Positions 8,002-33,478 are shown, counted from the first letter of the stretch. The stretch is 35,759 nt of DNA from Deltaproteobacteria bacterium (GCA_003647435.1 QMMV01000001.1:1-35759), one strand, 5' to 3'. Notes: generated from the sequence alone by a model not told the origin. A program made the numbers and translations.

Positions 8002-8120
8002 AAACAGAGAATGGACCTGTCTGCGTGTAACGCACAGGCAGGCGTGGGTTCGACCTGTCCCGCCATAGTTCCGCCGCTGCAGGACGACGGCGGATTCCCG
8101 CTGCCATATCAAACGCGGTG
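8002..8120 (+). repeat. structured repeat, copy A (palindromic element + conserved tail)
   Basis: Shares AAACAGAGAATGGA-CCTGYCTG..CAGGCAGG-CGTGGGTTCGACCTGTCCCGCC and the 3' block GGATTCCC..GCCATATCAAACGCGGTG with copy B at 11117-11231. The palindrome itself is at 8016-8042. Confidence 0.85.
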
Positions 8121-8279
8121 ATATCGTAACCCGAGCATGACATATGGACGATAAAGTAGTAATTATTATAACCCTATCTTGCCTTTTCGTCAAAACATTT
8201 TGGATTTGACTTGACATATGACCGATATAGAGCTAATTTTATTACTACCATGTTGGAAATGCGTCAAATGGGTCAGCCA

Positions 8280-11116: not shown

Positions 11117-11231
11117 AAACAGAGAATGGACCTGCCTGCGTGCGGTACGCACAGGCAGGCGTGGGTTCGACCTGTCCCGCCGAAGCCTGTCAGGGCGAAG
11201 GAGGATTCCCTCCGCCATATCAAACGCGGTG
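11117..11231 (+). repeat. structured repeat, copy B
   Basis: See copy A. The palindrome is at 11131-11159. It lies just 3' of, and antisense to, the DUF4236-TPR gene. Confidence 0.85.
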
Positions 11232-11261
11232 TTGTAATAATCCAAGTCTCCAGTTCCACGA

Positions 11262-12302
11262 CTACAACCCTAATCTAATTGCCACGTCCTCATAGTCGGG
11301 GGCCTCAGCGTAGAGTTTCTCGAGTTCGCTGCGTGACCGCCGGTGCTGGCCGAGGTCCTCATAGACCAGGGCCCGTTCATACCTGAGCGCCTTAAGAAGT
11401 TCCTCGGAACGGCCTTTCTTGCGGCGCAGAGCGGCTGTTAATGTGTCCCGGGCCGCAGTTGCCAGACCGAGGTGCCGAAGGGCTTTAGCTTTGTAAAGCA
11501 TCAAAGCTGCATGGATAGGCGTCTCGTTCTCAATGCCCTCAACCAACCGTACAACCTTCTGGCAGACCTTCTTGTCGCCCGGATGAGCGTCCAGCAACAG
11601 CTCCGCAAGAGACAACTTCACCACCACGTCGTCGGGCTCGAGCCGGCGTAGTCTTTCCAGGCAGGCAATCGCGTCCTGCCACCGCTCCAGACGCTGGTAG
11701 ACCTCCACGAGGCCCAGCAGCACGCCCCGAAGATCCGGGCCCACATGTGCGGAAACCTCGCCCGTGATAGGCAGACTCATGACAGCGGAGATGCCGTACT
11801 TGGAGAAGTAACGGCCCAGACGGTTGTGCTTCTCGGCAGCCATGGCCAGATAGTCTGCTGCTTCCGTCAGCTGTTCCTTCTTAAGTGTCAGGAAGCCGGC
11901 AAGGTAAGCGCCGTCGGCCAGGTGAGCCGCCTGTTCAAGGTGCTGAAGCGCTTTGTCCTCATTCCCCAGCACCAATTCCCGGCACCCATCCACCAGGGAC
12001 TCCTCGTCGTCCGGCGTGACGAGCCGCTTGAAGAATCCCAGGGTCAGACGGTCTTCTGCGCGGACTGAAGGGAGCGCCGGTGCGACGGAAGACATGTTTT
12101 TCCTGCCACCTGACCTCCCGCTTGGAAGGGTTGTGGTGTAAAATAGCCCCGTTCCCGGAATACCCACCGTCGCACGTTTGCCTCGGGAACCAACGGTGAA
12201 CTTCGCACCTCGTGGTCCGAACGAGAGCGATCCACCCGACTTGCTCAGATTCAGGGTTACTCCTGGTGCAATCCTAATTCTTCGCCAAAAGCGGAAGCTC
12301 AT
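11262..12302 (-). CDS. DUF4236 N-terminal domain + TPR-like repeat protein
   Basis: MSFRFWRRIRIAPGVTLNLSKSGGSLSFGPRGAKFTVGSRGKRATVGIPGTGLFYT matches the DUF4236 pattern. The C-terminal 250 aa are helical repeats with TPR-like A/L/Y spacing. Confidence 0.8.
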   Translation of the reverse strand: MSFRFWRRIRIAPGVTLNLSKSGGSLSFGPRGAKFTVGSRGKRATVGIPGTGLFYTTTLPSGRSGGRKNMSSVAPALPSVRAEDRLTLGFFKRLVTPDDEESLVDGCRELVLGNEDKALQHLEQAAHLADGAYLAGFLTLKKEQLTEAADYLAMAAEKHNRLGRYFSKYGISAVMSLPITGEVSAHVGPDLRGVLLGLVEVYQRLERWQDAIACLERLRRLEPDDVVVKLSLAELLLDAHPGDKKVCQKVVRLVEGIENETPIHAALMLYKAKALRHLGLATAARDTLTAALRRKKGRSEELLKALRYERALVYEDLGQHRRSRSELEKLYAEAPDYEDVAIRLGL

Positions 12303-12358
12303 TTGTCAGTTTCCAATGCAACAGTGTTGCCCATCGGCTCCGTCATTCAGAAAATCAA

Positions 12359-15300
12359 TCACGAATCATACGATACATCTTCAGCGTGGACGCTTGGCCG
12401 CAACAACGCAACCCGAGCAGGTTTTTTCCGCGCCTCAGAAAAATACAGAGCTTTGAACCGTTCCATCTGCTTTATTCTGTCGATCAGCATTCGCTCTTGG
12501 TCCGAGCTCGCGACATTGCGCACCAACGCCTTCGCGTCAGCTTCGGTCAACCGCAACACGAGGTAGTTTGCGATTGCCGAGAACAGCGAGACGTTGAAGT
12601 CCCTTGCTTCCTGCGAAGCGAGTACGAGCGATATGCCATATTTCCGACATTCCTTGGCCATCGTTGGAATCAGTGTGAGCTTGGCAGCTCGGTGAGCCTC
12701 GTCGAAGATAACGGCATGTGTAATGTGGTCCTGGATGCCTCGGCGGAACATGTCCTTGTAAAGCCCGTAAAAGATCAGCGAAGCAAAAGCTTTTTGCAGG
12801 TTGTCGTTCTGCGTTTTGTGAATACGGATTACCACGGGCTCGTCGCTTTCCCAGAGACTTTCCTGCGAGTCAGTGAGAGCAAAGAAGCCATAGTCGGCCA
12901 ATTCCTCCAAACGCGCTAGCAGACTCTTCAGCCCGCGGTCTGATTTCGGGGTATCCCGCAGGATTGCCACAAAGCGTCCAAACTCCGGTTCTTCCAACTC
13001 GTTCTGGTCAGCGTTCGGATCGTCCCATCCTTTCTCAACGAAGCTCTCCTTAACAGCCCTACGGATACGTTCCCCCTGAATGTCTCCGAGCTCTGGGAAA
13101 ATCGCGACGAAAATATCACGTAGGGCCCCCGCCACATCAAGGTACGCCACCTGTGAACTTCTGTCCATGACCTGCAATGGATTAAAGCCCAGTCCGCGAA
13201 AATCAATGAATCGAATCGGACCCACAAGACGTTGTAGCTCATCATCGATGTCTTGATGATATGAAAACACGATGGGCCGTATGCCGGCGTCAAGCATCTG
13301 TGTGCACAAGTTCAACAGGCAAGTGGTCTTGCCCATTCCGGGTAGTCCTGCGATCAGAAGGTGTGGGTTCCCCTTTACCGTTAGCGGCCAGTCCACTTTC
13401 CCGCCTGTTAGCAGATCCGTTCCTAAGCGAATGCGAGGTTCGATGGCACCTTCAGTGCCTTTGCTGGAAGGCACAGGCTCCTGATGAGTCCCGCCGCTTG
13501 GAACGCTCGGTTGTGCTTCTATAAAGTCGGGAACGCTGGGTGCCTCTGGGGCCTTGGCCTCTTCCGGCGCGGATGGAGCAACCGATGGTCGCGTCTGAAC
13601 AAGGTTGTCTCGGGTGACTGAGTCGCGACGGAATTCCGAATCGGGCAGAAGCGCTGGACCAAACAGGAATATCCGTGTATCCCATTCTGCAGGAGATATC
13701 TCCAATGGATGAGCGCCCATATACTCAGGGCAAAACACCCATCCACGGTCACTTCGTGGTATTCCTGCGAAGGCACACGTCCCGCCCTTTTCGACCATGC
13801 GGTCAATCTCGGAAGAAATTTCCTTATACCGTTCAGGTGGCAAGTAATGCCGATGTGCTTTGTCGGCGTAAAATCGGAGTACACGGGCGAGTTTGGCCCG
13901 CCGGATTGCCCTGAACGGTGAACATACGTCTTCGTGGGAATACCAGTTTCCCCAACGTTCGCGAAGGGATTCGATTTGCTGGCGAATACCCTCGAGTACT
14001 TCCGGGCCTCGAGCGGCGCGCAGGTGTCGACGATACTTCACTTCCACGAATCGGAACACAAGCCCTTTACGCGACACCGCGGTCACATAGATCAGATCCG
14101 GCCGCGCCCCTTTGGCCTCATTGTCGCTATCGTCTGCCGAAACTGGCGGAAGCAGATCCCGGACATCGTCAACAGGAATAAAGAAGCCTTCGTCGAGGGA
14201 CAACCAGCAATCGGCACTGCGGCGAGCGTGGCGGCAATTCGCATGCGAGAGCGCTAGCGCAATGAGCTCGGAAGTCGGCGCTTTATGGCCCGTGAGACGT
14301 ATAGCCAAACGACCGCTGAGTGCCTTGAGATGTTCCATGAGAAACTCAGCATTGCGGCGACTGTGGCTAAGTGCCATCTGATCGAGTGCGCCGTCCAAAA
14401 GGTTTCTAACCTCTTCAAGATTGCTGGTTGATGTAATCAACTGAAGGCAACCCAGGTCTTCGCGTTCGGGCACGCAGTCAATTACGTAAGCATCGTATAT
14501 CTCTTTATTGTCACGAGGCGAATCGAAATACTCGATGCCTGCGTTGCGATCCAATGTAATGACCCAGTCGCACAGCCGGTGAAGTTCACGAAGGCTCTGC
14601 GCTTTGTCAGGCGGAATATCCGTCCGTAGGACGGGCACCTCACTCACCGTGCCGATGCTTCGGGCAACACAACGTTGCACGACGTGCTGTAGGCGTAGGA
14701 GGCGCTCCGTGTGTGTTCGGTCTGAAGGGTGTTTTTCACCATCCGTGGAGTTCAGGAGTATGCTGCGCCATCTTGGAGACGGGGCACTGGAGTACTTGCG
14801 TTCGAAGAACGATAACAGCCCGAAGGCATAGTACGGTCTAGGCTTTGAGCTGTCCGCATTCGGTTCTCCTACGACACGCGACTCAAACGTATCGAATGCC
14901 ACAGCAAGATGGGCGGCCGTATTTGGGTTCTGCTTGTTTTTGCGTGCCCAGCGAAGCCGTGGGAGATTTACTCCGCTTGGCAGGCTTAGGGACTCCAGCA
15001 TCCAGTGATCCTCAGGAGCCAATGCTCCCGCACCGCTACGTCGCTTCTCACGCACTTCTCCGATGAAGCGTCCGGCCACACCCCGCTGCTGTTCAGATGG
15101 ATACAGCCCCAGCACGAAGGCTGGCGACTGCTCCTGCGTTGTGTCTTCAAGGTCATCCTCTTCCCCCCTTCGATGATAGTGCTCATAAACACATCCGAGA
15201 GAGCGCGCCACCGTGAGTCCATCACCGGGTCTCAGGGCGTGTATGTGCAGTAACCGGGATGTATTATGGCATTCGATGTACTTGACAATCTCGTTGCCAA

Positions 15301-17431
15301 GAACCTGCGCGCTCTGTCTTCCCACCGTGGGAACCGTTTCGGCCGCCTGGCTGTCCCCCAAAGCCCTGGCCAGGATCGCCACGGCAGCCTTTGGTTCTTT
15401 ATCGGTGTCCGGGAGCATACCCACAGCATGGAAGCCCAATGTATCCGCAAAGACAAAGCAACTACCATCCTCTAAGCCAGGCAGAAACGCTGGGAACATC
15501 GCCCCATCCAAAGCTGACAGCTCCTCGCGCACATCCTTGGGGGGCATGTCCTGTTCAAAAGCGGCATAAAGCGCTAAATTGTCATATGCCACGTGCCATG
15601 CTACTCGAACCGGATGGCTTGGAAGCACAATCAGGCCAATTGTGCGGCCAGAAAGGGACTGCACTTCAACCGTATTAGCCAAAGCGAGTGACGGGTCACC
15701 TTTCTCCAACACGGCGGCCCAGGCAAGCAAATACTCTTTCACGACGGGATCAAATACCTTGGCATTCTGGTCATATATCTGGCCGACGCCACCGCCGCAG
15801 ACCGCAAACCGCTCAGCCATTCGACGACTTGCGTTTACCGTTCGTTCCCAGAGCGGTGTCCAGGATGTTCCTGACGAGGATTCGGCGGGAACTAGAGGAA
15901 TGAATTCCGCTGCTCCTGCTCGCGAGCCAGAGGCACGCACTTTGACCCGCCAACGCCCGATTTCACCGCGGTGGTGAGTCCATTGTCCCTCCACCTCAGC
16001 AATCAGAGGCGGTCGATACACGCGGAAGCTCTTACCCCGCTGGGGGGTGCGCATCAATACGAATCCCTTAGAATCGACGGGTAGGCTGGCCGTGGTTGAA
16101 GCAAGAGTTGAGCCCATTTCTCGGTCGTCCAGTTCGATCAGCCCTTCGCTAAACGTGCGCACTTTCTTGCCAACGCCCCCTCGTTCCCGTTCAGGTGGTT
16201 GACCGAAGCGAATCAGAAACTCCTCAGACTCCTGAGCCTCGACTGCATCGTTGCCAATCACTGAAACAACCACTTTAGCCGAAATGAGCGCGTCCTCGCT
16301 GAGCTCAGAAAAATCGTCATTGGTAAAGCGACACTTCTCTTCCTTCTTGGCCGAATGGGACACCTCCCGGAAGGCCAATTCCTCTTCCATATCCGTTACG
16401 ATCGCGACACGATATTGAACGGCGTCTTTCTCTAAGTTGTCCGGCCGTGCTTTCCACCGAACTTCAAGCTTCGAATAATGCCCGGTCTGTTCCGCGTCGG
16501 GCTCCAGGACCAGCACGGGCGGTGCGTCGGCGTCACCTTCTTCAATTAGCCCGGACCATTTTGCGACCTTCCCTGTCCTCGTTCTCCACGAAGACAGTTC
16601 GATGGCCTGAATCTCTTGAACGGCACCTTCGATTCGCAAGGCGTTCACCCACAAATGCCTCTTGTCTGCCAGTTCAGTCAAAGCCGGTACAAGCGGCTTG
16701 GTGGCGGCCGATCGCAGAAAACGCTCCAGATTCCTGATCTGCTCTTCGGAGGGGTTCAAGAGCTTCAAGGTTTCAATTCTCTGCGCGGGAGACCCCCCGG
16801 AGGCCGCCGTTCCCAAAAGATGGTCGATGAACATCCTCGATAGATTCAAATCGTCTTCAGTGTGTGAATCCTCGGTCCACTGGACCGGCCAAAGACCGAG
16901 CAAATACAGGTATTCCCCCGGCTGTCTCGCGTCAGCGGCCACGCGAATCAGGAAATCGAACTCAGTCCAAGACGAAACACTAAAGCGACGACCGTATCCA
17001 CGTGCTTTCTTGATTGCCTGCTCGGCATACAGTCGCGTCTCACGAGACAGACGACGCGTTACCTCCCTTCGTGCCAAACGCAATGCTTCCCGAAACAGAG
17101 TCGACTCGTCTACCTCGCGTGCCGCACTATAAATACCGTCCATGCCCGCGCCAGCCAAAGAGGTGTCAACAAGCAAAAGTACTGCCTCTTGCTTGGCCTC
17201 ACGGATTTCGACGGCCTGGTCGGCTGTAATGGTTCGCGCTGTGGAGTCGGCGGCATCGGCCACGCGCCAAACCTGCCAGCCTGAAGGGGCAAAGCCGGCA
17301 TCTGCCGCAAGAGCCTCTACGGCATCGGGTGTCAAGCAACGCACAAACGCCATCGTCCCAGGTTCGGCCTCGCCAAGCACTGTTTCGAAAGCCTGTTTAA
17401 GGATCGTCGCATGTAGTTCAGACCACTGCAT
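12359..17431 (-). CDS. 1690-aa giant protein: large uncharacterised N-region, PD-(D/E)xK-like motif, C-terminal HerA/FtsK-type P-loop ATPase (DptH-like by architecture)
   Basis: One uninterrupted ORF. RPDLIYV..x16..FVEVKYR at about nt 14035-14102; Walker A LIAGLPGMGKTT at about 13324-13360; Walker B AVIFDEAHR at about 12693-12720. Its start overlaps the stop of the upstream gene by 14 nt. Confidence 0.85.
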   Translation of the reverse strand: MQWSELHATILKQAFETVLGEAEPGTMAFVRCLTPDAVEALAADAGFAPSGWQVWRVADAADSTARTITADQAVEIREAKQEAVLLLVDTSLAGAGMDGIYSAAREVDESTLFREALRLARREVTRRLSRETRLYAEQAIKKARGYGRRFSVSSWTEFDFLIRVAADARQPGEYLYLLGLWPVQWTEDSHTEDDLNLSRMFIDHLLGTAASGGSPAQRIETLKLLNPSEEQIRNLERFLRSAATKPLVPALTELADKRHLWVNALRIEGAVQEIQAIELSSWRTRTGKVAKWSGLIEEGDADAPPVLVLEPDAEQTGHYSKLEVRWKARPDNLEKDAVQYRVAIVTDMEEELAFREVSHSAKKEEKCRFTNDDFSELSEDALISAKVVVSVIGNDAVEAQESEEFLIRFGQPPERERGGVGKKVRTFSEGLIELDDREMGSTLASTTASLPVDSKGFVLMRTPQRGKSFRVYRPPLIAEVEGQWTHHRGEIGRWRVKVRASGSRAGAAEFIPLVPAESSSGTSWTPLWERTVNASRRMAERFAVCGGGVGQIYDQNAKVFDPVVKEYLLAWAAVLEKGDPSLALANTVEVQSLSGRTIGLIVLPSHPVRVAWHVAYDNLALYAAFEQDMPPKDVREELSALDGAMFPAFLPGLEDGSCFVFADTLGFHAVGMLPDTDKEPKAAVAILARALGDSQAAETVPTVGRQSAQVLGNEIVKYIECHNTSRLLHIHALRPGDGLTVARSLGCVYEHYHRRGEEDDLEDTTQEQSPAFVLGLYPSEQQRGVAGRFIGEVREKRRSGAGALAPEDHWMLESLSLPSGVNLPRLRWARKNKQNPNTAAHLAVAFDTFESRVVGEPNADSSKPRPYYAFGLLSFFERKYSSAPSPRWRSILLNSTDGEKHPSDRTHTERLLRLQHVVQRCVARSIGTVSEVPVLRTDIPPDKAQSLRELHRLCDWVITLDRNAGIEYFDSPRDNKEIYDAYVIDCVPEREDLGCLQLITSTSNLEEVRNLLDGALDQMALSHSRRNAEFLMEHLKALSGRLAIRLTGHKAPTSELIALALSHANCRHARRSADCWLSLDEGFFIPVDDVRDLLPPVSADDSDNEAKGARPDLIYVTAVSRKGLVFRFVEVKYRRHLRAARGPEVLEGIRQQIESLRERWGNWYSHEDVCSPFRAIRRAKLARVLRFYADKAHRHYLPPERYKEISSEIDRMVEKGGTCAFAGIPRSDRGWVFCPEYMGAHPLEISPAEWDTRIFLFGPALLPDSEFRRDSVTRDNLVQTRPSVAPSAPEEAKAPEAPSVPDFIEAQPSVPSGGTHQEPVPSSKGTEGAIEPRIRLGTDLLTGGKVDWPLTVKGNPHLLIAGLPGMGKTTCLLNLCTQMLDAGIRPIVFSYHQDIDDELQRLVGPIRFIDFRGLGFNPLQVMDRSSQVAYLDVAGALRDIFVAIFPELGDIQGERIRRAVKESFVEKGWDDPNADQNELEEPEFGRFVAILRDTPKSDRGLKSLLARLEELADYGFFALTDSQESLWESDEPVVIRIHKTQNDNLQKAFASLIFYGLYKDMFRRGIQDHITHAVIFDEAHRAAKLTLIPTMAKECRKYGISLVLASQEARDFNVSLFSAIANYLVLRLTEADAKALVRNVASSDQERMLIDRIKQMERFKALYFSEARKKPARVALLRPSVHAEDVSYDS

Positions 17432-19250
17432 TGTCGTCCTCCGTCGCCGGTTCGAAACGAGGGCGCAAGCACTTCATGGCCTCTGCGTCGTTAACGCCAA
17501 CAAGCAGCCCAAGGTCTCGCAAGCGCCGTTCAAGAACAGCTCGGTTCAATCGCAGCAGTTCGTTTGAAATCGCCATTCCCACCGGAGCCGTATCGACACA
17601 GAAACCATAGCGATCATGGAGTATCTCCAAAAAACTTTTGAGTGCCAGCGGCCGAGATCTAAGCCTTTTGCCTTTTTGCAGCACGTGTCGGTGAACCAAA
17701 TAGTCTAAAACCGAATCCGTAAAAACAAGTGAACGGATTTCGCGCGTCCTTCTCGTTCCGGCGCTCACGACTGCCCGTGTGACGCGTCTCTTGACGGCCA
17801 GTCCATTCGGACGTCCAATCAGTAATGCCGAGTCGATCATTGTGATCAGTCTCGATTGCGTATTCTTGCGTCCCTGTAGTGCCGTCAAAGCCTCTGCAAG
17901 ACGCCAGACCGGATTCGGCTGAACGTTTTCATCTCGCAGTAGTTGTGCGTGCTCGGGGTAATCCTCTTCCAATCTTTCGGCCAGTTCAGCGGCTTTACGA
18001 TCCAAATCATAGAGAATCGGTTCGGCTTCCTCGCGACGTTTGTGGAGCAAATCACCCAGCAGGTTCAACCACTCGGTCGCATACGGCCGGGTCTGAACAG
18101 GGAGTTTTTTGACCTTGGGGTCGTAGTGTGCCCAGCGATCGAGCAGGCGAAGGGCCATCAGGACAACCGGGAAGCGTTCGATACGACGCATGAAATCATC
18201 CATCGACTGCTCGGCAAGCTTTCTGAGGTCCCGATCCACACCATTGGAACAATCCACGAAGAGGGAGGCTTGGCTCTGGTTGCGTCTGTTTCGTATCTCG
18301 CCAGTATCTGCCCATTCGAATAGAAGTTCGATCACGCTAGTCAGAATCGTCGTCAACCCGACCGCCATGCACGATTCCAATAGTTCCACGAAACTGTGGC
18401 GGGGAATTAGTGTTGAGTAGGCGCGGACGAAATTCCGGATATCCTCGGAGAAATACCTGGCCGCTCGCTCGGCAATCGGCCGTTGATTCGAAATCTTGTC
18501 CCCCTCTTTGCCCCGCAATTTGTCCGGAGCCGCCCCCAGCTGTTGCGCCAGGCGAATCATGAGCAACTGGTCCAGGCCGACGGGCGTCTTTTCGGCAAAG
18601 TGATCGGACGTACGGCTACTTATCTCGCCCCGTCGCGTGATACCCTGATGGAAGGCACGCAGAAGAACATTTGCTTCGAAATCCCGGCCGACTGCGAACC
18701 ACGTGCGATCCCCTTCGCGATTTTGCTGTACGTACTCGCCATTCTGGTTGGCTAACATTGCGACGATCATTTCTGGTACATAGCGCAGGTTTGTGACGGC
18801 GTCGGGAAGATCTACCCAACTGGCCATATAATGGGCCGGGGCGACGCGCTGGACTTGCTCCGTTCTGCCAAGGGAGCGTTTGGCATTTTCGAGGCAGAAG
18901 CAGAGCAAGAGGTCACCGAGAATGGCTCGTTCGGTTTCACCGTCAAAGCCCTCGAACGCCTCCGCTTCGGCCAGTTTACCTGCTACACGTTCGATCGTTG
19001 CCGCCCGCCGGCGTTCTCGGGGCGTTCCTGCGGTTCCGCCAAATACATCCAGGAACCGCCCTTTGCCCCGCCGTTGGGCGAAACGAAACATGTAGAATAC
19101 AGCCGGCAACACAGCGGAGAGGTCAAAATCCTGGACCGACACAGGTAATGCCCTTTCGTAATTGCCTGTCCATATTTCACGCGTCATGCCACGCCCAAAC
19201 ACATCATCGACGATAGCGCGGGCGGTGGTGGCTCTCTGGGCGGGCTTCAT
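17418..19250 (-). CDS. 610-aa protein with no motif I recognise (occupies the DptG position)
   Basis: Long ORF with an ATGA start/stop overlap with the upstream gene and a 14-nt overlap with the downstream gene. A GGAGG SD lies inside the end of the upstream gene. Confidence 0.8.
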   Translation of the reverse strand: MKPAQRATTARAIVDDVFGRGMTREIWTGNYERALPVSVQDFDLSAVLPAVFYMFRFAQRRGKGRFLDVFGGTAGTPRERRRAATIERVAGKLAEAEAFEGFDGETERAILGDLLLCFCLENAKRSLGRTEQVQRVAPAHYMASWVDLPDAVTNLRYVPEMIVAMLANQNGEYVQQNREGDRTWFAVGRDFEANVLLRAFHQGITRRGEISSRTSDHFAEKTPVGLDQLLMIRLAQQLGAAPDKLRGKEGDKISNQRPIAERAARYFSEDIRNFVRAYSTLIPRHSFVELLESCMAVGLTTILTSVIELLFEWADTGEIRNRRNQSQASLFVDCSNGVDRDLRKLAEQSMDDFMRRIERFPVVLMALRLLDRWAHYDPKVKKLPVQTRPYATEWLNLLGDLLHKRREEAEPILYDLDRKAAELAERLEEDYPEHAQLLRDENVQPNPVWRLAEALTALQGRKNTQSRLITMIDSALLIGRPNGLAVKRRVTRAVVSAGTRRTREIRSLVFTDSVLDYLVHRHVLQKGKRLRSRPLALKSFLEILHDRYGFCVDTAPVGMAISNELLRLNRAVLERRLRDLGLLVGVNDAEAMKCLRPRFEPATEDDNAVV

Positions 19251-22200
19251 GGCTGACCTCCTAATGGAAGCGGCTTGAGGACAATCTGCTGCCGAGGACC
19301 TTCGGACCGCTCATCGATTTCGGCAAAGACCCTATAAATAGTCTCGTCTTGCATGGGATTCCATACGAGCAATTCGCGCTCGTCCTCACGAACAAGCCGC
19401 TGGACGAAAATCGAAAGGTTGGCGAACGTATCATCTGTCGATACGTCTCCTAACTGGTATCCGTCACTTAGCTCCAGAAGGAGGTGGAACAACTCAGCTC
19501 CCAATCGCAGGCGTTCTTCTCTACCGTCACGATAGCGATAGATCAGAAATGCGTGTCGGTGTAGTCGATCAATACCCTCCACTGCGGGTGGCAGGTCGGG
19601 TTCGATCCGAAAGGCGTCGAGCGGTTTTTCAACCCAGAATGCTGTCTCAGTGGGTGTTCGAGGCGTGATACGCAAAGGAACGACCCCTTCCCGATCCAGT
19701 GCCTGTGGGGGAAGGTCTTCAAGGCGCGAGATACCGGCGCAGAGACGATCACGCAAAGTCCGCAATTCGTCGGCCTCCTGTACAAGGGCCAGATTGCGGA
19801 AAAGCTGAAGATCCCTCCCGCGGGCAAGATCTAGCACACGAGGGTCGCCGACAATCTGTTCAATGTGCTCCTTGGTCCATTCAAAGTAGGCTCGGCGGCG
19901 CGCTGATTCCAGCGAAAGTCGCTCGTATCGCGGCGCTGTCTTCGTACTCTCTGCAAATGGTCTGCTTAATAGATAGCGGTCGATTTGCGGATGGGCCTCA
20001 AGAGCAGGATCGAATCGTGCCAGCTCTCGGAGGGCTTCTCCTTGGCGTCCAGGGGAGTATGACACAAACGCCCGATCCCAATATGGCAGCGGGGTAACAT
20101 CAGAGCCATCATGGTAATCATCGCAGAAATGGACACCGAATAGAATATAGACCAACGCAGCCCGCAGTTCGCGAATCGTAATGTGCGTTTCCCCACGCAA
20201 GTGCACAGCCTGCAACGCTTCGAATAACCGACGACGGGCACGCTGACGGGTACTCGGATCAACGGGCTCCGGCACGCCCTCCGGCCCGAAAACACGGGTA
20301 GCCCGAAATACTTCACATCGCTCCTTCGCGGAACATGACTGACATGGCCTCCAAATCGCCGACGTTTTGTCACCTCCATAGAGTTGATCCAGCAGCCGCT
20401 CGAGGAAGTCAGTCTGGATGACTTTCCGGTCAGACGTAACACCTCCTACCAGCGATCTTCCGTTGAGATCAATGAACCGGATGTGAGATTCCCGCTTGGT
20501 CTCTTCGGCTTGAAGAAGCTCATATAGTTCTTCAGTGAGTGCAGTTGTATTCCCGCCATTGTGCAGCTCTATTCCTTCGATCCATTCCAGCAGCCGGCCG
20601 TCATTGATGGCCAACAGATGCACGATGTCCTCGGTGGGAAGACCTTCCTGGAAGGGGGCGAGGAATTTGTCGAGGATCTCGTCAGCCGAACGTCCACGCC
20701 AGGCCGCTGAGCCATCCAGATTCATGCGGACAATCAAGCCGTCATCCATCCTGCCCTCGAGAAGGCGCTCCGACGACGGGTGCTCGCCAAACCCGAGTCG
20801 TGTTGCGAGGTGTTGAAGCAGTGCTGTCTTGCCATCACCAGCGTTCCCGCACAGGATCACCAACCGAACGCGCCGTTCTCGAATGTCATGTTCCAATGTC
20901 TCTTCAAGCCGGGTCTCAACATAAGTCTGCGCAGCAAACGGCGTGTCTAAACCTCGCGTCTCGCGGTTACCCCACCGGGAACCTGGGTAGGATTGAAGCA
21001 GTGAGCGCAGCCATTCTATCTTGTGCTCTCGCAGATCCTGTAATCTGGAAGGTTCCGTTTCCGTTGGTTTCTGCGGCAATTCCTCTTCCGGCTGCTCCTC
21101 CGCTGGCTGCGGCGTCGTTAGAGCGGCCAATGCTTCGGTTGCAGAAGAAAAACGCTGACTCGGTTCTGGGTAGGTTGCCTTGTCTATAAAAGCAGCAAGG
21201 ATCGGATATTCATTACGATTGATGCCTTCCCAGTTTACACCTCTTTCTTTGGCCAGCTCTCCGCCGTACCGGAAGGGCTCTCTGTCGAAGACGACGTGGA
21301 AGAAACTAGCTGCCAAAGCATAAATGTCATCCGAAGCGGAAGCTAGTCGACCCTCACCATAGGAAGGTGAGCAATATAGAACCGTGCCTGGGCCACGGAT
21401 GGGCTCGCCAATCTTGTTAACGAAATCATAATCGGTCAGGACAAGGTCGCTTCCGGAAACGATCATATTGCGCGGGCTGACGTCCCCATGTACGAGGCCA
21501 TTGCGATGAAGCACGTCCAGCGCTTCACACATGAGGTGCAACCACCGAGCGGCCAAGCCTTCACTCGACGTTTCCTGTTGGTCTTCGGCTAACAATGGAA
21601 ACACGCCGCTGAATTCACCCAGTGGGGTGCCATCGAGCCATGTCATGAGGGCGACAAACTCATTTACTCGCCATTCTCGCGCTACCTCGTAGATTGCCGA
21701 AAGGCCTGCGTGGCGACCAAGATGGGAGCGAGCCAAGCCATACGACTTCAGTACACGCTGGCCTACCTCCGCTTCGTGCGCTACTTTGGCAACGTACGTT
21801 CCAAGATCCTCCTTTGTCGATGACTCAATCTCAACAACCTTGAACGCTGTCCCCACGCCTCCCGAACCAAGACGTGAGACAATGCGGTAATCACGACCGT
21901 GGAAGCGTACCAGTTGGTCTTCCGTCCAAAACCTTGCCGGCGGTGCCGCAGGCGGCGGTACGGATTCGCCGAGGAGCTGGGAGAAAGACACCTCCAGATC
22001 CTTCAGCGTACAGCGCTCTTGTGGTTCCTCTGCAAGGCCCTTCGCGAGCGCTTCCAATGCGGCCACACTATCTTCATCGTGACGTTCCTGAAACAAAACG
22101 TTCAAAGAAGCGCACAGCGAATACACATCCGACCGTTGGTCGGCAGCGCCTAAGCCCTGTGTTCGAACCTCAGGAGCTATCGTCAATTTTTGTTCAAGCG

Positions 22201-23272
22201 GAATCTGCTTAGAAGCGACCGTCACCTGCGAAGGAATCTTCATGCGGTCAAAGCCGGTGAGGATCGGTGAGTTGTCGTGTTTCACGAGGACCGTGTGCGG
22301 AGTAAGATTGCGGTGGACGAACGGTTGATCCTCCGTCCCTTCGCCATGAAGTTCAGATATAGTACGAATAACGTTCCGCGCGAACGCCAATCGGCTCATC
22401 GTATCCCATGTATCATCTAACACACGTTCTGCGATACATGGTGCGGCAGGGTCGACCACGGTGAAAAAGAACATCTCGCCCGCGTATCCCGGGGCGCTCT
22501 GGTACGAATCAAGAATACGCGGTGCCCACGTATGCAGTTGAAGACGCTGTAGCGCCTCAAACTCACGTCTGGCTTTGGTCTCGGCATTCTTGTCATCGCT
22601 TGTAGACAGGTCGTAGAGGTGCAGAATCACGCGGTCCTGTCTGGCAGAGTGAACCCCTTTGTATATCCGGTGGAACCGTTCTTCCCTCGGCGTTTGCAGC
22701 TCCAGGTTGACGTAGCCTCCAAACCGCCTGAGAGACCCATCTATGGCCACTTTGCTCTTTGGAGCCAACAGCCGGCTTAATGAGTCTATTTGTAAAGCAG
22801 ATAATATCGTAGGTTTCTCAAGTCCGACTGCCTTCTTCCATCCATTCAACGTATGGAAGGAAACACCTCGTACAACTGTTTCAGCGAGTCGCTGGGCCTT
22901 GGATGACTCACGAGTCAGCAAGATCACGCCATCCACATACGGAAGCACCGGAACCTTTCTACGAAGCGTTGTTCCGAGCTTACGCGCCTTATTCGTGATT
23001 TTGTCGACCTCTTGCTCCACTTCGTCCCTGTGTTTGTCCACCCATTGCGAATCCCAGTGCTTGACCTCTATAACGCGTATTCCAGATGGGCTAATCGCAA
23101 CAATGTCAATCTCGTCGGACTGTAGCTGATGGTTTACAGAGAAGGCCAGATTCGTTAAAAGAATCCATTTCCCATCGCCGGGCGTAGATTGCAGACGGTT
23201 CTTTAAGAATTCAAACGCCTTTAGCTCGCTCTCGTTTGCTGCGGGGCCGCAGGGAATGATGGTTACTTGCAT
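19247..23272 (-). CDS. 1341-aa fusion: NERD nuclease-like domain + degenerate kinase + intact Ser/Thr-type kinase + P-loop NTPase/Cys-cluster module
   Basis: NERD: DEIDIVAISPSGIRVIEVKHW. Pseudokinase: HRNLTPHT, GFD, and no Gly-loop or Lys. Kinase: LGSGGVGTAF, YVAKV, HGDVSPRN, DYD. Walker A: ILCGNAGDGKTALL. Also LLAINDG and CQSCSAKERC. AAGGAG SD 8 nt upstream of the ATG. Confidence 0.88.
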   Translation of the reverse strand: MQVTIIPCGPAANESELKAFEFLKNRLQSTPGDGKWILLTNLAFSVNHQLQSDEIDIVAISPSGIRVIEVKHWDSQWVDKHRDEVEQEVDKITNKARKLGTTLRRKVPVLPYVDGVILLTRESSKAQRLAETVVRGVSFHTLNGWKKAVGLEKPTILSALQIDSLSRLLAPKSKVAIDGSLRRFGGYVNLELQTPREERFHRIYKGVHSARQDRVILHLYDLSTSDDKNAETKARREFEALQRLQLHTWAPRILDSYQSAPGYAGEMFFFTVVDPAAPCIAERVLDDTWDTMSRLAFARNVIRTISELHGEGTEDQPFVHRNLTPHTVLVKHDNSPILTGFDRMKIPSQVTVASKQIPLEQKLTIAPEVRTQGLGAADQRSDVYSLCASLNVLFQERHDEDSVAALEALAKGLAEEPQERCTLKDLEVSFSQLLGESVPPPAAPPARFWTEDQLVRFHGRDYRIVSRLGSGGVGTAFKVVEIESSTKEDLGTYVAKVAHEAEVGQRVLKSYGLARSHLGRHAGLSAIYEVAREWRVNEFVALMTWLDGTPLGEFSGVFPLLAEDQQETSSEGLAARWLHLMCEALDVLHRNGLVHGDVSPRNMIVSGSDLVLTDYDFVNKIGEPIRGPGTVLYCSPSYGEGRLASASDDIYALAASFFHVVFDREPFRYGGELAKERGVNWEGINRNEYPILAAFIDKATYPEPSQRFSSATEALAALTTPQPAEEQPEEELPQKPTETEPSRLQDLREHKIEWLRSLLQSYPGSRWGNRETRGLDTPFAAQTYVETRLEETLEHDIRERRVRLVILCGNAGDGKTALLQHLATRLGFGEHPSSERLLEGRMDDGLIVRMNLDGSAAWRGRSADEILDKFLAPFQEGLPTEDIVHLLAINDGRLLEWIEGIELHNGGNTTALTEELYELLQAEETKRESHIRFIDLNGRSLVGGVTSDRKVIQTDFLERLLDQLYGGDKTSAIWRPCQSCSAKERCEVFRATRVFGPEGVPEPVDPSTRQRARRRLFEALQAVHLRGETHITIRELRAALVYILFGVHFCDDYHDGSDVTPLPYWDRAFVSYSPGRQGEALRELARFDPALEAHPQIDRYLLSRPFAESTKTAPRYERLSLESARRRAYFEWTKEHIEQIVGDPRVLDLARGRDLQLFRNLALVQEADELRTLRDRLCAGISRLEDLPPQALDREGVVPLRITPRTPTETAFWVEKPLDAFRIEPDLPPAVEGIDRLHRHAFLIYRYRDGREERLRLGAELFHLLLELSDGYQLGDVSTDDTFANLSIFVQRLVREDERELLVWNPMQDETIYRVFAEIDERSEGPRQQIVLKPLPLGGQP

Positions 23273-23284
23273 CTCGCTATCTCC

Positions 23285-23755
23285 TTAAGGTTTCGCAGGT
23301 TCTTCCTGCGATTCGCCTGCTTGCTGCAACACGTGGATGGCGGTATCACGCATGTCCATTTTCACCATCCTACCACGTGGCCTTTCTTTAGAAGATAAAC
23401 CCATACGCAAGCGGCTTTCCCTGGCGTAAGCCGGATGTTTCTCATAAACGGTTTTGAGCAAGGTGTTGTGGTCGAGGACCGCGGCGACGTCGAACGCGGT
23501 GGAGATGCCCCGGCGAATTTCGAGGTTCGGCGCGATCACCAGAACACGGCCTTGGGCAATCTCGAAGGGCAGCAGCGCCATGAGGCCCGTCTTGCCGCAG
23601 CCCACCGGAATTTGAAGGATGGCGTGCTCGGAACTGTTCCGGAAATGCTGGCGCGTGCGGAACCATCCCTCCACCTGGGGATCGCGCAAGTCCGGGTTGC
23701 CCTGGATGAAAGCCCGGGTGTCGTTGAAGAACCTTGCTATTTCCTCATTTGTCAT
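23285..23755 (-). pseudogene. N-terminal stub of an SF2 (DEAD/DEAH or Res-type) helicase
   Basis: Motif I QIPVGCGKTG and Ia VLVIAPNLEIRRGI are present. There is no motif II or later, and the tail looks non-homologous. Its ATG overlaps the hsdR stop (ATGA). Confidence 0.6.
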
Positions 23756-26700
23756 ACCTTTTCTGCCCAATCTCGGCAAACGACTTCCGCCTGTTCCAGA
23801 ACAAGCTCCGTAGCGCGGGCCTGCTTATCAGGTGGATAGCCATACCGGCGAAGAATGCGTTTGACCATCACACGCATCTGTGCACGGACGTTCTCCCTGA
23901 CGGTCCAGTCGATGGTGACGTTATTCCGCACCGCACGAAGGAGTTCTTGTGCGATGATTCGAAGGGTTTCGTCCCCAAGAACCTTCACAGCGCTGTCGTT
24001 GACCTCCAGAGCATCGTAGAAGGCAATTTCATCTTCTGTAAGGCCAAGTTCTTCTCCGCGGGCGTCGGCCTCCCGTAGGTCTTTAGCGAGCGCGATCAAC
24101 TCTTCGATCACCTGAGCGGTTTCTATGGCCCGGTTCTGGTATCGCCGAATCGAGTTCTCGAGCATCTCGGAGAACGATCTCGCTTGAACGATATTCTTTC
24201 TTCCACGCGTCTTGATTTCGCCTTCCAGCAGCTTACGAAGCATCTCAACGGCTAGGTTCCGCTGTGGCAAACCTCGGATTTCTGCCAGGAACTCATCCGA
24301 CAGGATGGAGATATCCGGCCTCTTGAGTCCAGCCGCAGCGAAGATGTCGATGACTTCATCCGATGCCACTGCTTTCGATACGATCTGACGGATGGCGTGA
24401 TCGATTTCTTCCGGGCTACGCCGATCCACCCCGGCACTCTTGGTCAACACTGACTTCACGGCTTGGAAAAAGGCCACGTCGTCGCGAATTTCCAGGGCTT
24501 TCTCATGCGGTACAGCCAAAGCGAAAGCCTTAGAAAGCTCCGACACCGCCCTGGCCAGCCGATTCTTGCCGTCTTCCTGTTTAAGAACATGCTCCTGAGC
24601 TGCTGGTAGAATCACCAGGCGTTCTTGGGGGTCTCCATCAATCCAGGCAGACCATTCGAAACCGTGGAAGATGCCGCAGCAGACCTCGTATTTCTCCAGC
24701 ATCACGGCCACAGCTTCTTCCTGATCAACAGCGGTTCTGCCCTTGCCCCCACTCTCGGTGTAGGTCGCGAGCGCGGATTTCAACTCGTGAGCAAGGCCCA
24801 GATAGTCGACGACCAGACCGCCCGGTTTATCTTTGAAGACCCGGTTCACCCGGGCGATGGCCTGCATCAGGCCATGACCGCGCATGGGCTTGTCCATATA
24901 CATCGTATGCAGGCAGGGAACATCGAAACCGGTCAACCACATGTCCCTGACGATGACCATCTTGAACGGGTCCTCAGCGACCTTGAATCGCTTGGCAAGT
25001 TCTTCTCGTCTGGCCTTGTTGCGGATGTGCTGTTGCCACTCCACAGGGTCTGAAGCAGACCCCGTCATCACTACTTTCAGGCTTCCTTTGTCGTCGTCGC
25101 TATGGTGCCAGTCCGGCCGGAGCCGGGCGATGGCCTCGTAGAGCTCAACACAGATTCGGCGGCTCATGCAGACCACCATGGCCTTACCGTCCATCGCTTC
25201 AAGCCGGCGCTCAAAGTGATCGACTATGTCCTGGGCGATCAGCCGGATACGCTTCTCTGCACCGACGAGGGCCTCAAGTTGCGCCCACTTGGTTTTGAGC
25301 TTTTCTTTGTGCTCAACCTCTTCGCCTTCGGTGGCTTCTTCGAACTCCTCGTCGAGCTTTGGCCGTTCGGCCTCATCGAGTTCCAGCTTGGCGAGGCGAC
25401 TTTCATAATAGATCGGGACCGTGGCTCCATCCTTCACTGCCCGCTCGATGTCGTAGACGCTGACGTAATCTCCAAAAACGGCGCGGGTGTTCTTGTCCGT
25501 CAGCTCGATGGGCGTGCCGGTAAAACCAATGAAGGATGCGTTGGGCAGCGCCTCGCGCATGTGCCGCGCGAAGCCGTCGATAAAGTCGTATTGGCTGCGG
25601 TGGGCTTCGTCGGCGATCACCACGATATTGCGCCGATCCGACAAAAGGGGATGCTGGTCTTCTCCCTCGGTGGGAAAAAACTTGTGGACCGTCGTGAATA
25701 CCACGCCCCCTGATCCCGTGTGCAACAATTCCCGCAGATGCGCCCGGCTTTGTGCCTGCTCGGGTTGTTGCCGGAGAAGTTCATGGCAGCGCGCGAACGT
25801 CCCGAATAACTGGTCGTCCAGGTCGTTGCGGTCAGTGATGATAACCAGCGTCGGGTTCTCCATCGCCGGGTGGAGCACGACACGTCCGGCATAGAACGCC
25901 ATGGTCAGGCTTTTCCCTGATCCCTGAGTGTGCCACACCACACCAACTCGCTTGTCCCCGCCGGCTCCAGCCGCCCGAACGGTCGAATCCAGCGCCAGGT
26001 TCACCGCGTGGTACTGGTGATACCCGGCCATCTTCTTGACCAGCACACCGCCGCCTGTGTCCTCGAACACGATGAAATGCCGGACCAAGTCCAGGAATCG
26101 CCGTTTCTCGAACACACCCTCCAGTACTACCTGGAGCTGCGGCAGTTTGTCGTCCGCCAGTTCCTCACCCTCGATTGTCCGCCAGGGCATGAACCATTCC
26201 CGGTCGGACGTCAGCGTCCCGATCCGGGCCTGTACGCCGTCGGATATCACCAGCGCTTCGTTAAACGCGAAGAGCCGTGGTATCTGCTCTTTGTAGGTCT
26301 GAAACTGGTTGAACGCCGACCAGATGGTCGCGCTCTCGGTGGCCGCATTTTTCAGCTCGATCACCGCCAACGGAAGGCCGTTGACGAACAGCACTACGTC
26401 AGGACGACGCTCATGCCGATCCTCGACAACGGTGAACTGATTGACCGCCAGAAACTCGTTGTTCTCCGGCATGTCGTAGTCCAGCACGCGAACGAGGTCG
26501 CCGCCGATGGAGCCGCCTGCCTGCCGCGCCCGTCCAGCAGCGATCTCACGTTTCAGCCATGTTCGACCATATCCGGTCTTGAGCCATTTCTCGCGTTCCA
26601 CCGCCTTCTCGCGCGATTCGTGCTCTTCGTAGTATTCTATACAGACAGGTCTGTGTTTCCGAGTGTGTTCCGCAGCCGTCCCCGCTAAATGTTCACGCCA

Positions 26701-27114
26701 ACGCCGCTCCAGATATTCTGTTTGTCCTATGTAGATGCTGTCATCATCACACCGTATCGCATAAACGAAAAAACAGCCGGGACGCGGCGCAGGCAGGTCA
26801 GCCCGCTGGTACTCGACGGGAACGCCATCGACCAGGTACTTGTGTATGAGGTGGTTATTCGCCACGAGCGTTGGCATGTCCGGTCGAGTCAGCTTGCGGA
26901 ACGCCTCTTCCAGGGCGTCGGCCGGCACCTGGGGATTGAGCCGCTGGAGCGCCTGACGCAAGCGCGATTCCAGAATCACTTGTTCATAATCTTCACGCTC
27001 AGCCGCCGGTTCTCCCGGGGCGATCTCCGGCCCGGACAGGATGGTGTAATCTAGCGCCTCCAGCCAGGCGAGGGCGGCTTGTTCAACCGTGGTTTCGGCG
27101 AACGATCCACTCAT
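23752..27114 (-). CDS. hsdR: Type I restriction enzyme R subunit, carrying an in-frame GIY-YIG insertion
   Basis: HsdR N-terminus. Nuclease motif [19 protein letters not shown]. Helicase motifs [19 protein letters not shown] and FTGTP. Conserved C-terminal domain. Confidence 0.95.
26516..26797 (-). mobile_element. 282-bp palindrome-bounded GIY-YIG cassette inserted in frame in hsdR
   Basis: Bounded by CCTGCCTG (26516-26523) and CAGGCAGG (26790-26797), with further imperfect inverted repeat inside those ends. Encodes 94 codons including FFVYAI..IYIGQT..RRWREH..EREKWLK. Confidence 0.8.
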
Positions 27115-28106
27115 GCTTTTGCCCCGTATTTATCCACGTTTAATTGGCAATGCTTGCGTACTTCTTCGACCCAGCGTTCATACCAATGCCAATGCTTCCC
27201 AGCAACCTTAGTTCCGTAACCTTTCCCTGGTTTTTTTGCATCAAGTTGTTTCCATAATTGAGTGTGGTAGTGCATCGAGAACTTAGGAAAGCCTTCCTTA
27301 CGCATCAGTTCGACAATTTGGCCAGGTAAATACTTTGGTTTTTCCGTTTCTTTGATTACTGTGTATTCAGCATTTATTGTTTCTGCGAGTGAGGAATCGC
27401 TTTTTACAAATTCAATGACTTGGTCTGCTTGTCCTTTTCGGTTAGCCGTTTTGGCTACGAACAACACTCGATAGGCGAACCGGGGACTATTGAATTCCTC
27501 ATCCGTCAACTTGCCCTCAAAGCCATCGATGAATGCCTTGATGTGCGAAGGCATTTTGCTGGGCGACGGCAACGCCGCAACCTGCTCGCGCGAGATAGAT
27601 GAAAACTGAAGGCTGAATGCCAGATGCTTGTCGATGCCAAACTTTTCGCCAAACAGCTTCTTCACGTACTCGTTGTAGTTCAGGCAGCACGCCTGAAACT
27701 TCGCGCTGAGAGAAGAGTCAAGCCGAGACGTCATCTGATGCTCTATTTCATGGCGGATACCGATCAGAAAGCGCAGGTTGTTGGCGGTGTCTTTGTCGAT
27801 CGGGGACTGCTGATCGTTCAGACAACGTTCCAACTCCCAGTGCTTGTGCGCTCCAGACTTTGTCTTGTCGAAAATGCGCCTCTTCGCCCGTTGCTGGTAG
27901 TATCGGTACTCAATGTGGTGCTTTCGATAGTACGCATGGAGAAGGTACGTCCACGCAATGTTCATCAATACAATGAAGATCTCCGACTTGAACGTGATCA
28001 ACGGGTTGTTGAAAATCTGGACCGCAGCTAGAGCCGCCTCACGGGATTTCGTGAGCAGTTCACCTGAAACAGAGTAGATCCGTCTGACTCGTGGGGATTT
28101 AGCCAT
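27111..28106 (-). CDS. DUF3644-like protein embedded in the Type I R-M operon
   Basis: 331 aa. [37 protein letters not shown] resembles the DUF3644 N-terminus (from memory). Stop/start overlaps with both hsdS and hsdR. Markedly lower GC than its neighbours. Confidence 0.65.
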
Positions 28107-31061: not shown

Positions 31062-31062
31062 G

Positions 31063-31305
31063 TCAGATCTCCTCTCCGCCAAAGTATTCCTGTAGAAGGT
31101 CGTTGCCTCGTTCACCCAGGTCCCGGAGCAAGTCCTCGATCTGCTTCAGCGCCAATGGCGACGGCTTGGCGCGGCCGTTCTCCCACCGGTTGATGGTTGG
31201 GTAGGTCACACCGAGCTTGGCCGCGAATTTTTCCTGGGTGAGCCCCGTTCGTTCGCGAAGCTCACGGACTAATCGGGATATGTCAGGCTGGGCATTCAAG
31301 GTCAT
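31063..31305 (-). CDS. XRE-family HTH protein, controller (C-protein)-like, first gene of the R-M operon
   Basis: 80 aa. [29 protein letters not shown] is a classic Cro/C1 HTH. Its stop is 1 nt from the hsdM ATG. Confidence 0.9.
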
Positions 31306-31366
31306 TCTCCTTTCAGATCCGACAGGGACCTGATCGAAACAAAGTTCATATCACGCGCCCCAACAG

Positions 31367-31401
31367 ATGATATATCATACAATAAAGGGGAGAAATGTCA
31401 A
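31367..31401 (-). promoter_or_regulatory. sigma70-type promoter with overlapping palindromic operator
   Basis: Minus strand reads TTGACA (31401-31396), 16 nt, TATGAT (31379-31374). A perfect 12-bp palindrome ATGATATATCAT (31367-31378) overlaps the -10. An AAGGAGA SD precedes the HTH ATG. Confidence 0.7.
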
Positions 31402-31449
31402 GCGGGATTTCTGTCCGGAAATTCTCTGGGCTGGAAATGACTTATGATT

Positions 31450-31947: not shown

Positions 31948-32003
31948 CGACCTCCACTCTGCGGCCAGTCTGTTGTCTGGTGACTGACGTTCAGGCCCGG
32001 GCC

Positions 32004-32336: not shown

Positions 32337-32369
32337 TCCGGACCTCCTTTCCGCGCCGCACGGCGCGAA

Positions 32370-33424: not shown

Positions 33425-33478
33425 TTGTCATCCTCCTGAAGTTACCTGCGTTGCATCGCGAAGCAGCATAAGTTAATC

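Follow-up and report, generated by a model that had tools for sequence, protein, structure and literature searches.

Which of the genes that follow a Type I restriction-modification (R-M) operon on a Deltaproteobacteria contig belong together, and to what kind of system do they belong? The contig (QMMV01000001.1) is part of a metagenome-assembled genome (MAG), and its entire length of 35,759 bp forms the window analyzed here. An earlier note on this DNA had proposed an undescribed defence module of four coupled genes, here termed P1 to P4. Our analysis indicates that P1, P2 and P3, the trio at positions 12359-23272, probably constitute a self-contained three-gene anti-invader module in the class that comprises the MADS core and DndFGH/SspFGH. 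MADS stands for methylation-associated defence system (Maestri et al. 2024).

Three overlapping genes form the conserved unit

All four open reading frames (ORFs) of the earlier note were recovered on the minus strand at the same coordinates, namely P1 (19247-23272; 1341 amino acids, aa), a MAD6-like or kinase-fused DndF-like subunit, P2 (17418-19250; 610 aa), a protein of the MAD7 family (PF26611), P3 (12359-17431; 1690 aa), a MAD8-like or DndH-like giant, and P4 (11262-12302; 346 aa), which carries the Pfam domains DUF4236 and TPR. The spacings were reproduced as well: P1 and P2 overlap by 4 nt (ATGA), P2 and P3 by 14 nt, and 56 nt separate P3 from P4. Both overlaps within the trio were found again in the homologous loci L002, L004 and L056, and the translational coupling of the three giants, as described before, is therefore a conserved trait and not a chance arrangement.

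The homologous loci comprised 48 from the GTDB species set, collected with P2 as the marker, plus metagenome and plasmid loci, and collinearity was assessed by tblastn with the window proteins split by domain. All 53 other loci that were long enough showed the same succession of P1 (NERD, kinases, P-loop core), P2 and P3 (N-terminal half, centre, HerA), at identities of 40-90% (40-79% in the GTDB-set loci). Two relatives, L056 and L057, are the closest, with 83-86% nucleotide identity to the window. Carriers belong to Chloroflexota, Planctomycetota, Thermodesulfobacteriota, Latescibacterota, Acidobacteriota, Bacteroidota, Saccharibacteria and several proteobacterial classes, and the protein database divides the trio clade into more than 1,500 clusters at the 90% identity level and approximately 400 at the 50% level. 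A cultured example is plasmid pRphaR630c of Rhizobium phaseoli, whose trio is named 'NERD domain-containing protein kinase family protein / hypothetical protein / ATP-binding protein' by PGAP. The trio stands in a defence island in the window, L053, L056 and L057, and one relative at 77% identity sits in a prophage-like element. No trio copies were found in phage genomes or in IMG/VR viral contigs.

With regard to the borders of the unit, DNA homology upstream of P1 starts at window position 23477 for L056 and at 23287 for L057, and it ends at approximately 12400, about 40 nt before the P3 stop codon. In 46 loci, the 117 ORFs closest to the trio were classified with Pfam and gave 142 families, none of which occurred in more than three loci (N6_Mtase in three). 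When DndB/C/D/E, MAD1-5 and Dcm were searched by tblastn against 54 trio sequences (966 kb), only MAD2-like N6-adenine methyltransferases were retrieved, in five of the 54. DndB-E, MAD1, MAD4, MAD5 and Dcm had no homologue in these sequences, and the lone MAD3 match was a P-loop stretch of 58 aa. The module therefore consists of three genes without an obligatory partner. These are passed on, by descent and by horizontal transfer, as a single cassette with translational coupling, and neither a fourth gene nor a modification enzyme is conserved with them. A small ORF upstream of P1 was considered as a further conserved element and rejected because its similarity is confined to the nearest relatives.

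Domains and catalytic motifs of the three proteins

The domain calls of the earlier note hold, that is, NERD, kinases and P-loop for P1, an FtsK/HerA-type ATPase for P3, and DUF4236-TPR for P4. Judged over 33-48 homologues, the catalytic motifs of two predicted nucleases, one predicted kinase and two predicted P-loop NTPases are conserved in the trio.

P1 begins with a nuclease domain of the NERD (PD-(D/E)xK) type at aa 1-130 (22883-23272; Pfam NERD E 7.5e-11, match at aa 13-109). Among 34 sequences, D53 is kept in 94%, and E69 and K71 are kept in 100%. A second, weaker Pkinase stretch at aa 200-450 (21923-22675), matched by PglW and Stk2 models, reads HRN where HRD is expected; with the catalytic Asp missing, it is presumed to be an inactive pseudokinase. 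It is followed at aa 455-745 (21038-21910) by a Ser/Thr kinase that is predicted to be active. Here, the Pfam Pkinase match covers aa 462-672 (E 1.6e-18), PknB structures match at E 2e-8, and the motifs GSGGVG, VAK, HGDxxPRN and DYD are all kept across homologues. A poorly conserved linker leads to a DndF/SspF-type core at aa 770-1140 (19853-20965; PADLOC SspF E 6.6e-15), which resembles a P-loop nucleotide kinase with a lid. The P-loop lies near aa 785-830, with the Walker A motif GNAGDGKT at 809, and a conserved C-terminal domain follows.

For P2, the precomputed Pfam assignment is PF26611, 'MAD7', whereas the local Pfam copy returned no domain match. The C-terminal 350 aa are common to MAD7, and the last approximately 95 aa weakly match the PADLOC SspG model (E 5e-6). 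The structure prediction and Foldseek search that the note had suggested for this protein were run. The AlphaFold2 (AF2) model is poor, with a predicted local distance difference test (pLDDT) score of 58 and confident parts only at aa 290-585, and Foldseek of this model against the PDB yielded nothing better than E 1.2.

The front part of P3 (aa 1-640; 15512-17431) consists of an alpha/beta lobe, a helical bundle and beta-sandwich domains in an AF2 model with a pLDDT of approximately 80. Foldseek gave weak matches for this part, to the superfamily 2 (SF2) helicase Brr2 (E 3e-5) and to GH2/Ig-like beta-sandwiches (E 1e-3 to 2e-2), but the model of aa 1-1200 was usable only over these 640 residues and left aa 640-1200 without an assignment. 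The most conserved block of the protein is found at aa 951-1050. It is followed by a candidate PD-(D/E)xK nuclease motif at aa 1112-1132 (14036-14098), PD1112 ... E1130-V-K1132, with residues that are invariant or near-invariant in the homologue alignment and an AF2 beta-hairpin at 1113-1129; from these features, we infer a catalytic function. The HerA/FtsK-type ATPase at aa 1340-1680 (12392-13414) has its Walker A (GLPGMGKT at 1362), Walker B (IFDEAH) and SQE sensor intact and conserved, and the best PDB match of P3 is the C-terminal domain of DptH (7ES4, E 7.7e-6). A methyltransferase motif of the form [DNS]PP[YFW] does not occur in P3, a result compatible with a methyltransferase domain that is either inactive or missing. 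NCBI labels P3 'ATP-binding protein' here.

The nearest relatives are the MADS core proteins

According to the MADS preprint (10.1101/2023.03.30.534895), mad2-4 and mad6-8 are each needed for phage defence in P. aeruginosa, the detection model treats MAD6-8 as mandatory, and MAD1, MAD2 and MAD5 are R-M-like accessories. The restriction mechanism is listed as unknown (PMC12904381). As a comparator, we used a Piscinibacter plasmid operon (L054), all eight proteins of which pass the NCBIfam MAD1-MAD8 cut-offs and in which MAD6, MAD7 and MAD8 measure 1391, 557 and 1858 aa.

The PADLOC models mad6, mad7 and mad8 match P1, P2 and P3, and the window proteins are collinear with MAD6, MAD7 and MAD8 of the comparator at 22-27% identity. 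The hidden Markov model (HMM) of the P1 family matches MAD6 over positions 4-1303 (E 4e-93; hhalign 100%), that of the P2 family matches MAD7 (E 6e-19; hhalign 98.7%), and that of the P3 family matches MAD8 (E 1.6e-51; hhalign of the N-terminal 1230 aa 99.9%). Gene order, size classes and domain order agree, with P3 aligned to MAD8 over positions 3-1230 and the ATPase. These comparisons make the trio a distant sister clade to the MADS core; both fall into a wider F-G-H superfamily, to which DndFGH/SspFGH also belong. The earlier statement that no named system has this composition does therefore not stand, since the nearest relatives MAD6, MAD7 and MAD8 form an experimentally validated core and Pfam itself calls the P2 family MAD7.

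However, the distance is considerable. Apart from the low identity, the NCBIfam models, which for MAD6 and MAD8 span N-terminal parts only, stay below their curated cut-offs: MADS6 scores 175.6 bits on P1 (E 1.6e-51) against a cut-off of 460 bits, MADS7 scores 160.5 bits on P2 (E 8e-47) against 410 bits, and MADS8 (NF047742) gives no match on P3, whose first 300 aa stay without a hit even when E values up to 1 are allowed. The model searches proposed in the earlier note thus produced matches for mad6-8, SspF, SspG and DndH, but none that passes a curated NCBIfam MADS or Dpt threshold. The clade also differs from MADS in having no MAD1 (helix-turn-helix, HTH), MAD3 (AAA ATPase), MAD4 (DUF4276) or MAD5, and the window carries generic HsdM and HsdS proteins.

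A further trio was observed on Bacillus thuringiensis plasmid pKK1 (L055, 6316-21069), where a hypothetical protein of 1308 aa stands directly 5' of kinase-DndF-like, MAD7-like and MAD8-like proteins of 1352, 531 and 1728 aa (E against the window families 8e-93, 3e-18 and 2.5e-36).

The Type I R-M operon and other modification genes next to the trio

The R-M operon that the earlier note had placed upstream of P1 is real (23752-31115, minus strand) and encodes genuine HsdM, HsdS, DUF3644 and HsdR proteins. It is adjacent to the trio and possibly cooperates with it; it is not a conserved partner, and R-M genes like those of the window are rare next to the trio among the trio loci. From hsdM to P4, nine co-directional ORFs follow each other with gaps of -11, -10, -4, -4, 12, -4, -14 and 56 nt, and the trio is probably co-transcribed here with the upstream operon and P4. 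Scans for promoter and terminator consensus sites yielded fewer sites than, or no more than, shuffled sequence.

This tight packing, together with palindromic hairpins that bracket the gene string, favours a composite MADS-like system as an alternative. The trio would then read the N6-methyladenine (m6A) mark of HsdM/HsdS, a single mark would shield the host from both HsdR and the trio, and the R-M genes would replace MAD2 and MAD5. Such a design would agree with canonical MADS, which couples MAD6-8 to an HsdM-like methyltransferase and an HsdS-like subunit. An N6-adenine methyltransferase is adjacent in five of the 54 loci, the window included, and M or M+S genes of Type I-like character border the trio in several arrangements (window, L002, L011, L012 and L057). 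Directly 5' of the trio in L057 (87% identity) lies Mrr-HsdS-HsdM, with an HsdM only 25% identical to that of the window, and hsdM-PRiA4-hsdS is found 3' of the trio in L002. In L056 (88% identity), a BrxD-like ATPase and a DEAD/Lhr helicase are located upstream instead. Two further loci retain remnants of the R-M family found in the window: in L007 (5539-5949), an HsdM remnant (aa 10-146, 61% identical to the window HsdM) abuts the start of P1, and in L006 (8798-10527), a frameshifted HsdR C-terminus with 50-73% identity to that of the window directly follows the trio. Finally, related F-G-H-like trios have dndBCDE (L059) or Dcm, with or without Vsr (L061, L062), as their neighbours, and this suggests that modification partners can be exchanged.

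Several observations argue against the composite design. Approximately 90% of the trio loci have no methyltransferase within 10 kb, indicating that the methylation association of MADS is not a property of this clade. The trio is intact in both L006 and L007 although the R-M genes have decayed. The HsdM and HsdS of the window are ordinary Type I subunits, with an HsdM score of 52 bits for MADS2 against a cut-off of 720 bits and no MADS5 match for HsdS. Defence islands often hold Type I R-M systems, and the adjacency may thus be incidental. Moreover, hsdR and P1 appear to be joined by recombination. The 479-nt 'gap' between the two genes contains an ORF of 156 aa (23285-23755, minus strand), which overlaps the hsdR stop codon by ATGA, ends 12 nt before the P1 start and lies outside the conserved module. 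It is chimeric: its first 70-95 aa or so are an N-terminal fragment of an SF2 helicase (motif I PVGCGKTG; Pfam ResIII E 2.5e-7), and aa 71-151 correspond to a conserved leader 5' of P1 in L056. The junction ORF is probably a recombination joint between hsdR and P1 or a pseudogene. Taken together, we read the link of the trio with DNA-modification modules as recurrent yet facultative, with modification genes decaying while the trio stays intact, and consider a composite system in the window rather unlikely, though it is the strongest of the alternatives.

HsdR itself (23752-27114) contains a GIY-YIG nuclease domain at aa 115-183 (Pfam E 1.9e-16), located before the C-terminal part of HSDR_N. 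A GIY-YIG domain is unusual in a Type I restriction subunit.

Relation to DndFGH, SspFGH and PglW

The resemblance to DptFGH/DndFGH that had been noticed in the gene order is borne out by the protein comparisons. PADLOC models of SspF, SspG and DndH match P1, P2 and P3 collinearly, with DndH matching P3 at E 3e-21 in the C-terminal region only, and genuine DptF/G/H sequences from Massilia and Aliivibrio plasmids served as comparators. The hallmarks of a DndF core are a P-loop kinase of derived type, in which Walker A is canonical and Walker B contains an Asn, an acidic residue behind strand 2, and a large lid made of helices. P1 aa 761-1136 align with DptF 10-316 at an hhalign probability of 92.7%, and the motifs LCGxxGDGK[ST], hLD, IN(D/I)G (the Asn-containing Walker B) and FDPAL are in register. 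The C-terminus of DndH consists of a restriction endonuclease (REase) domain and, behind it, a HerA/FtsK ATPase whose sensor is a Gln, and P3 correspondingly ends in the PD-ExK motif, Walker A/B and SQE (hhalign against DptH 98.1%). Both systems thus have an overlapping tripartite F-G-H operon, the derived P-loop in the first protein and the order of nuclease motif and ATPase in the last.

The correspondence is less clear for the remaining parts. DndG is a triple winged-helix protein, and P2 showed no similarity to DptG by hmmsearch or hhalign, pooled profiles included. The DndH N-terminus comprises an inactive SWI2/SNF2 lobe, an HTH, two beta-sandwiches, a target recognition domain (TRD) and an inactive DAM with a nested TRD. 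The SF2-like lobe and beta-sandwiches in the N-terminal part of P3 are the fold classes published for DndH domains i-iii, at weak scores. For the N-terminal 1250 aa of P3 as a whole, hhalign gave 0.1% with DptH as the only target, 71% with the H proteins of the Dcm-linked trios and 87% with both sides pooled, which is only suggestive. None of the curated models TIGR03236-03238 (DptF/G/H) is passed, with 15.2 bits for DptF (TIGR03238) against a threshold of 50 and no match for DptG and DptH.

Rakesh, Aravind and Krishnan (NAR 2024; PMC10853773) reported that DndF may carry a winged HTH (wHTH), NERD, and tandem inactive and active S/T/Y kinases before the P-loop core, so that the fusion found in P1 is a published DndF variant. 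The text of their supplement contains neither the Rhizobium accessions nor the word 'NERD'. In the same study, DndFGH is described as a stand-alone system, and all eight dnd genes occur together in only 7% of taxa. The fusion and the decoupling from dndABCDE were restated in 2026 with a parallel drawn to PglW (PMC12839542), and elsewhere, DndFGH is described as a nickase and translocase (PMC11662687). The absence of dnd, ssp, pglX and pglZ genes, as reported before for this DNA, was reproduced among the annotated ORFs of the window, and tblastn did not retrieve DndB-E either; given the published decoupling of DndFGH from dndABCDE, the lack of dnd/ssp genes is expected rather than anomalous.

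A classical phosphorothioate-dependent DndFGH/DptFGH module, with dndABCDE or sspABCD elsewhere in the incomplete genome, would accommodate the three PADLOC matches and the label 'DptH' that JGI/IMG gives to many P3 homologues, and only 35.8 kb of the genome, a MAG, is visible. It is nevertheless very improbable: MAD6-8 are much nearer to the trio than DptFGH, P2 has no recognizable similarity to DptG, the Dpt models fail as described, dnd genes lie within 10 kb in none of the 54 loci (the F-G-H-like trio beside dndBCDE in L059 is a distant one), and the complete set of eight genes is rare by the published count.

The PglW-like N-terminal extension that the earlier note had seen on P1 was also recovered. 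PADLOC and NCBIfam PglW models match aa 16-336 (BREX_PglW E 1.3e-14, 53 bits against a cut-off of 990 bits), and P1 shares the triad of NERD, pseudokinase and kinase with PglW of type 2 BREX. P1 departs from PglW in its C-terminal half, where a DndF-type P-loop core takes the place of the published PglW C-terminal region, and PglX, PglZ, BrxC and BrxL were not found among the window ORFs.

The trios in L061 (62-10470) and L062 (1-9575), on Pseudoalteromonas and Rhizobium leguminosarum plasmids, encode proteins of approximately 700, approximately 500 and 1620-1830 aa. They share three genes and a C-terminal DUF87/HerA domain with the window trio, and their H proteins provided the collinear match of 71% to the P3 N-terminal region. 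In contrast to P1, their first gene has no kinase or NERD extension, and they are flanked by a C5-cytosine DNA methyltransferase, in L062 also by Vsr. These trios may represent a counterpart of DndFGH and MADS associated with 5-methylcytosine (5mC).

P4 and other elements of the window

The earlier proposal of a new four-gene system with an integral DUF4236-TPR protein can draw on the position of P4 on the same strand shortly downstream of P3, with no hairpin or terminator-like site in between and probable co-transcription in this window, but it is scarcely tenable because P4 homologues are present in none of the 53 other trio loci, even the relatives at 83-86% nucleotide identity. The survey of synteny that the note had suggested recovered only three co-occurring genes, P4 lies outside the DNA homology common to the window, L056 and L057, and P4 as a conserved component of the trio is already refuted. 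The P4 family (1649 matches, approximately 346 aa, 75-90% identity across distant phyla) instead forms the last same-strand gene behind unrelated defence systems in the three genomes inspected (L063, L064, L065). It follows HsdM-HsdS-SIR2-HerA-AAA_15 in Thiohalobacter, a patatin/CD-NTase (CBASS-like) operon in a Rifleibacteriota MAG, and a toxin-antitoxin pair, an HsdR fragment and Pyr_excise in Thermodesulforhabdus. P4 is thus a promiscuous defence-island gene and no component of the trio system, and it may be a regulator or a backbone gene of a mobile defence island.

A GC-rich palindromic hairpin family, CCTGYCTG-N(11-17)-CAGRCAGG, occurs in seven copies in the window (8016-8042, 11131-11159, 28794-28826, 29826-29855, 30358-30384, 31658-31690 and 31776-31805), compared with 0.01 expected by chance. 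Three copies lie within the hsdS and hsdM frames; their lengths of 33, 30 and 27 nt are all multiples of three, which suggests in-frame REP/RPE-like insertions. Other copies bracket the gene string from hsdM to P4. A direct repeat of approximately 135 nt (up to approximately 245 nt with gaps; 8002-8135 and 11117-11246; core identity 80-100%) flanks an AbiEi_4-like gene, PDC-S01 (AAA_14+DUF4143) and an ORF of 108 aa. A distance of 16 nt separates the end of its second copy from the P4 stop codon, and the repeat may be a scar left by an insertion or a duplication. A GC-rich region of approximately 2.3 kb (31116-33478; GC content 0.62-0.64), situated between hsdM and a P-II-like ORF beside acrB, contains overlapping ORFs on both strands, including one of 535 aa on the plus strand, and the ORFs of neither strand had Pfam or PADLOC matches. 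No tRNA genes or Rfam families were found in the window.

Proposed mode of action and significance

The reading of P1-P2-P3 as a self-contained anti-invader module has to be weighed against several points. The defence role is a prediction from homology at 22-27% identity and from genomic context, and many trio loci adjoin housekeeping genes without an obvious defence island. All three proteins stay under the curated NCBIfam cut-offs of both the MADS and the DptF/G/H models. The match of the P3 N-terminus to DptH moves between 0.1 and 87% probability with the profiles chosen, and AF2 could not resolve aa 640-1250 of P3, which include the most conserved block. As P2 has no detectable similarity to DptG, a poor model and an empty Foldseek result, its DNA-binding role is assumed. 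Furthermore, the trio usually has no linked modification enzyme that would account for the sparing of self-DNA.

If the three-gene module is accepted as the most probable reading, a mode of action can be proposed by analogy with DndFGH. P1, P2 and P3 would assemble as one complex, in which P2 and the N-terminal half of P3 would contact DNA. The HerA/FtsK motor of P3 would move the DNA, and its PD-ExK nuclease would nick or cut DNA of the invader. The P-loop of P1 could act as a nucleotide-binding sensor or licensing switch, while its kinase and NERD domains might serve as signalling or back-up effectors. In the window, this cassette has landed directly behind a complete Type I R-M operon; across the clade, it would work without a linked methyltransferase.

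The role of DndFGH without phosphorothioate is debated. A more far-reaching but doubtful possibility is that MAD6-8-like trios are autonomous immune machines that require no epigenetic mark, in which a nucleotide-sensing P-loop and the kinase would license the HerA/FtsK-driven nuclease, and that methyltransferase, phosphorothioate or Dcm modules are optional add-ons docked by individual lineages. If this were true, the window would be a snapshot of docking onto a Type I R-M system, and HsdR and the trio might share one methylation mark.

The architecture of P1 and the nearest relatives of the trio are already known from the literature, and this is not a new kind of system. What is new is an unnamed relative, a clade that passes no curated MADS or Dpt threshold. 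Defence censuses relying on those NCBIfam models would consequently not name it. The clade would represent a natural minimal version of MADS and DndFGH, with three genes that are strongly conserved, spread over many phyla and usually free of a linked modification enzyme.

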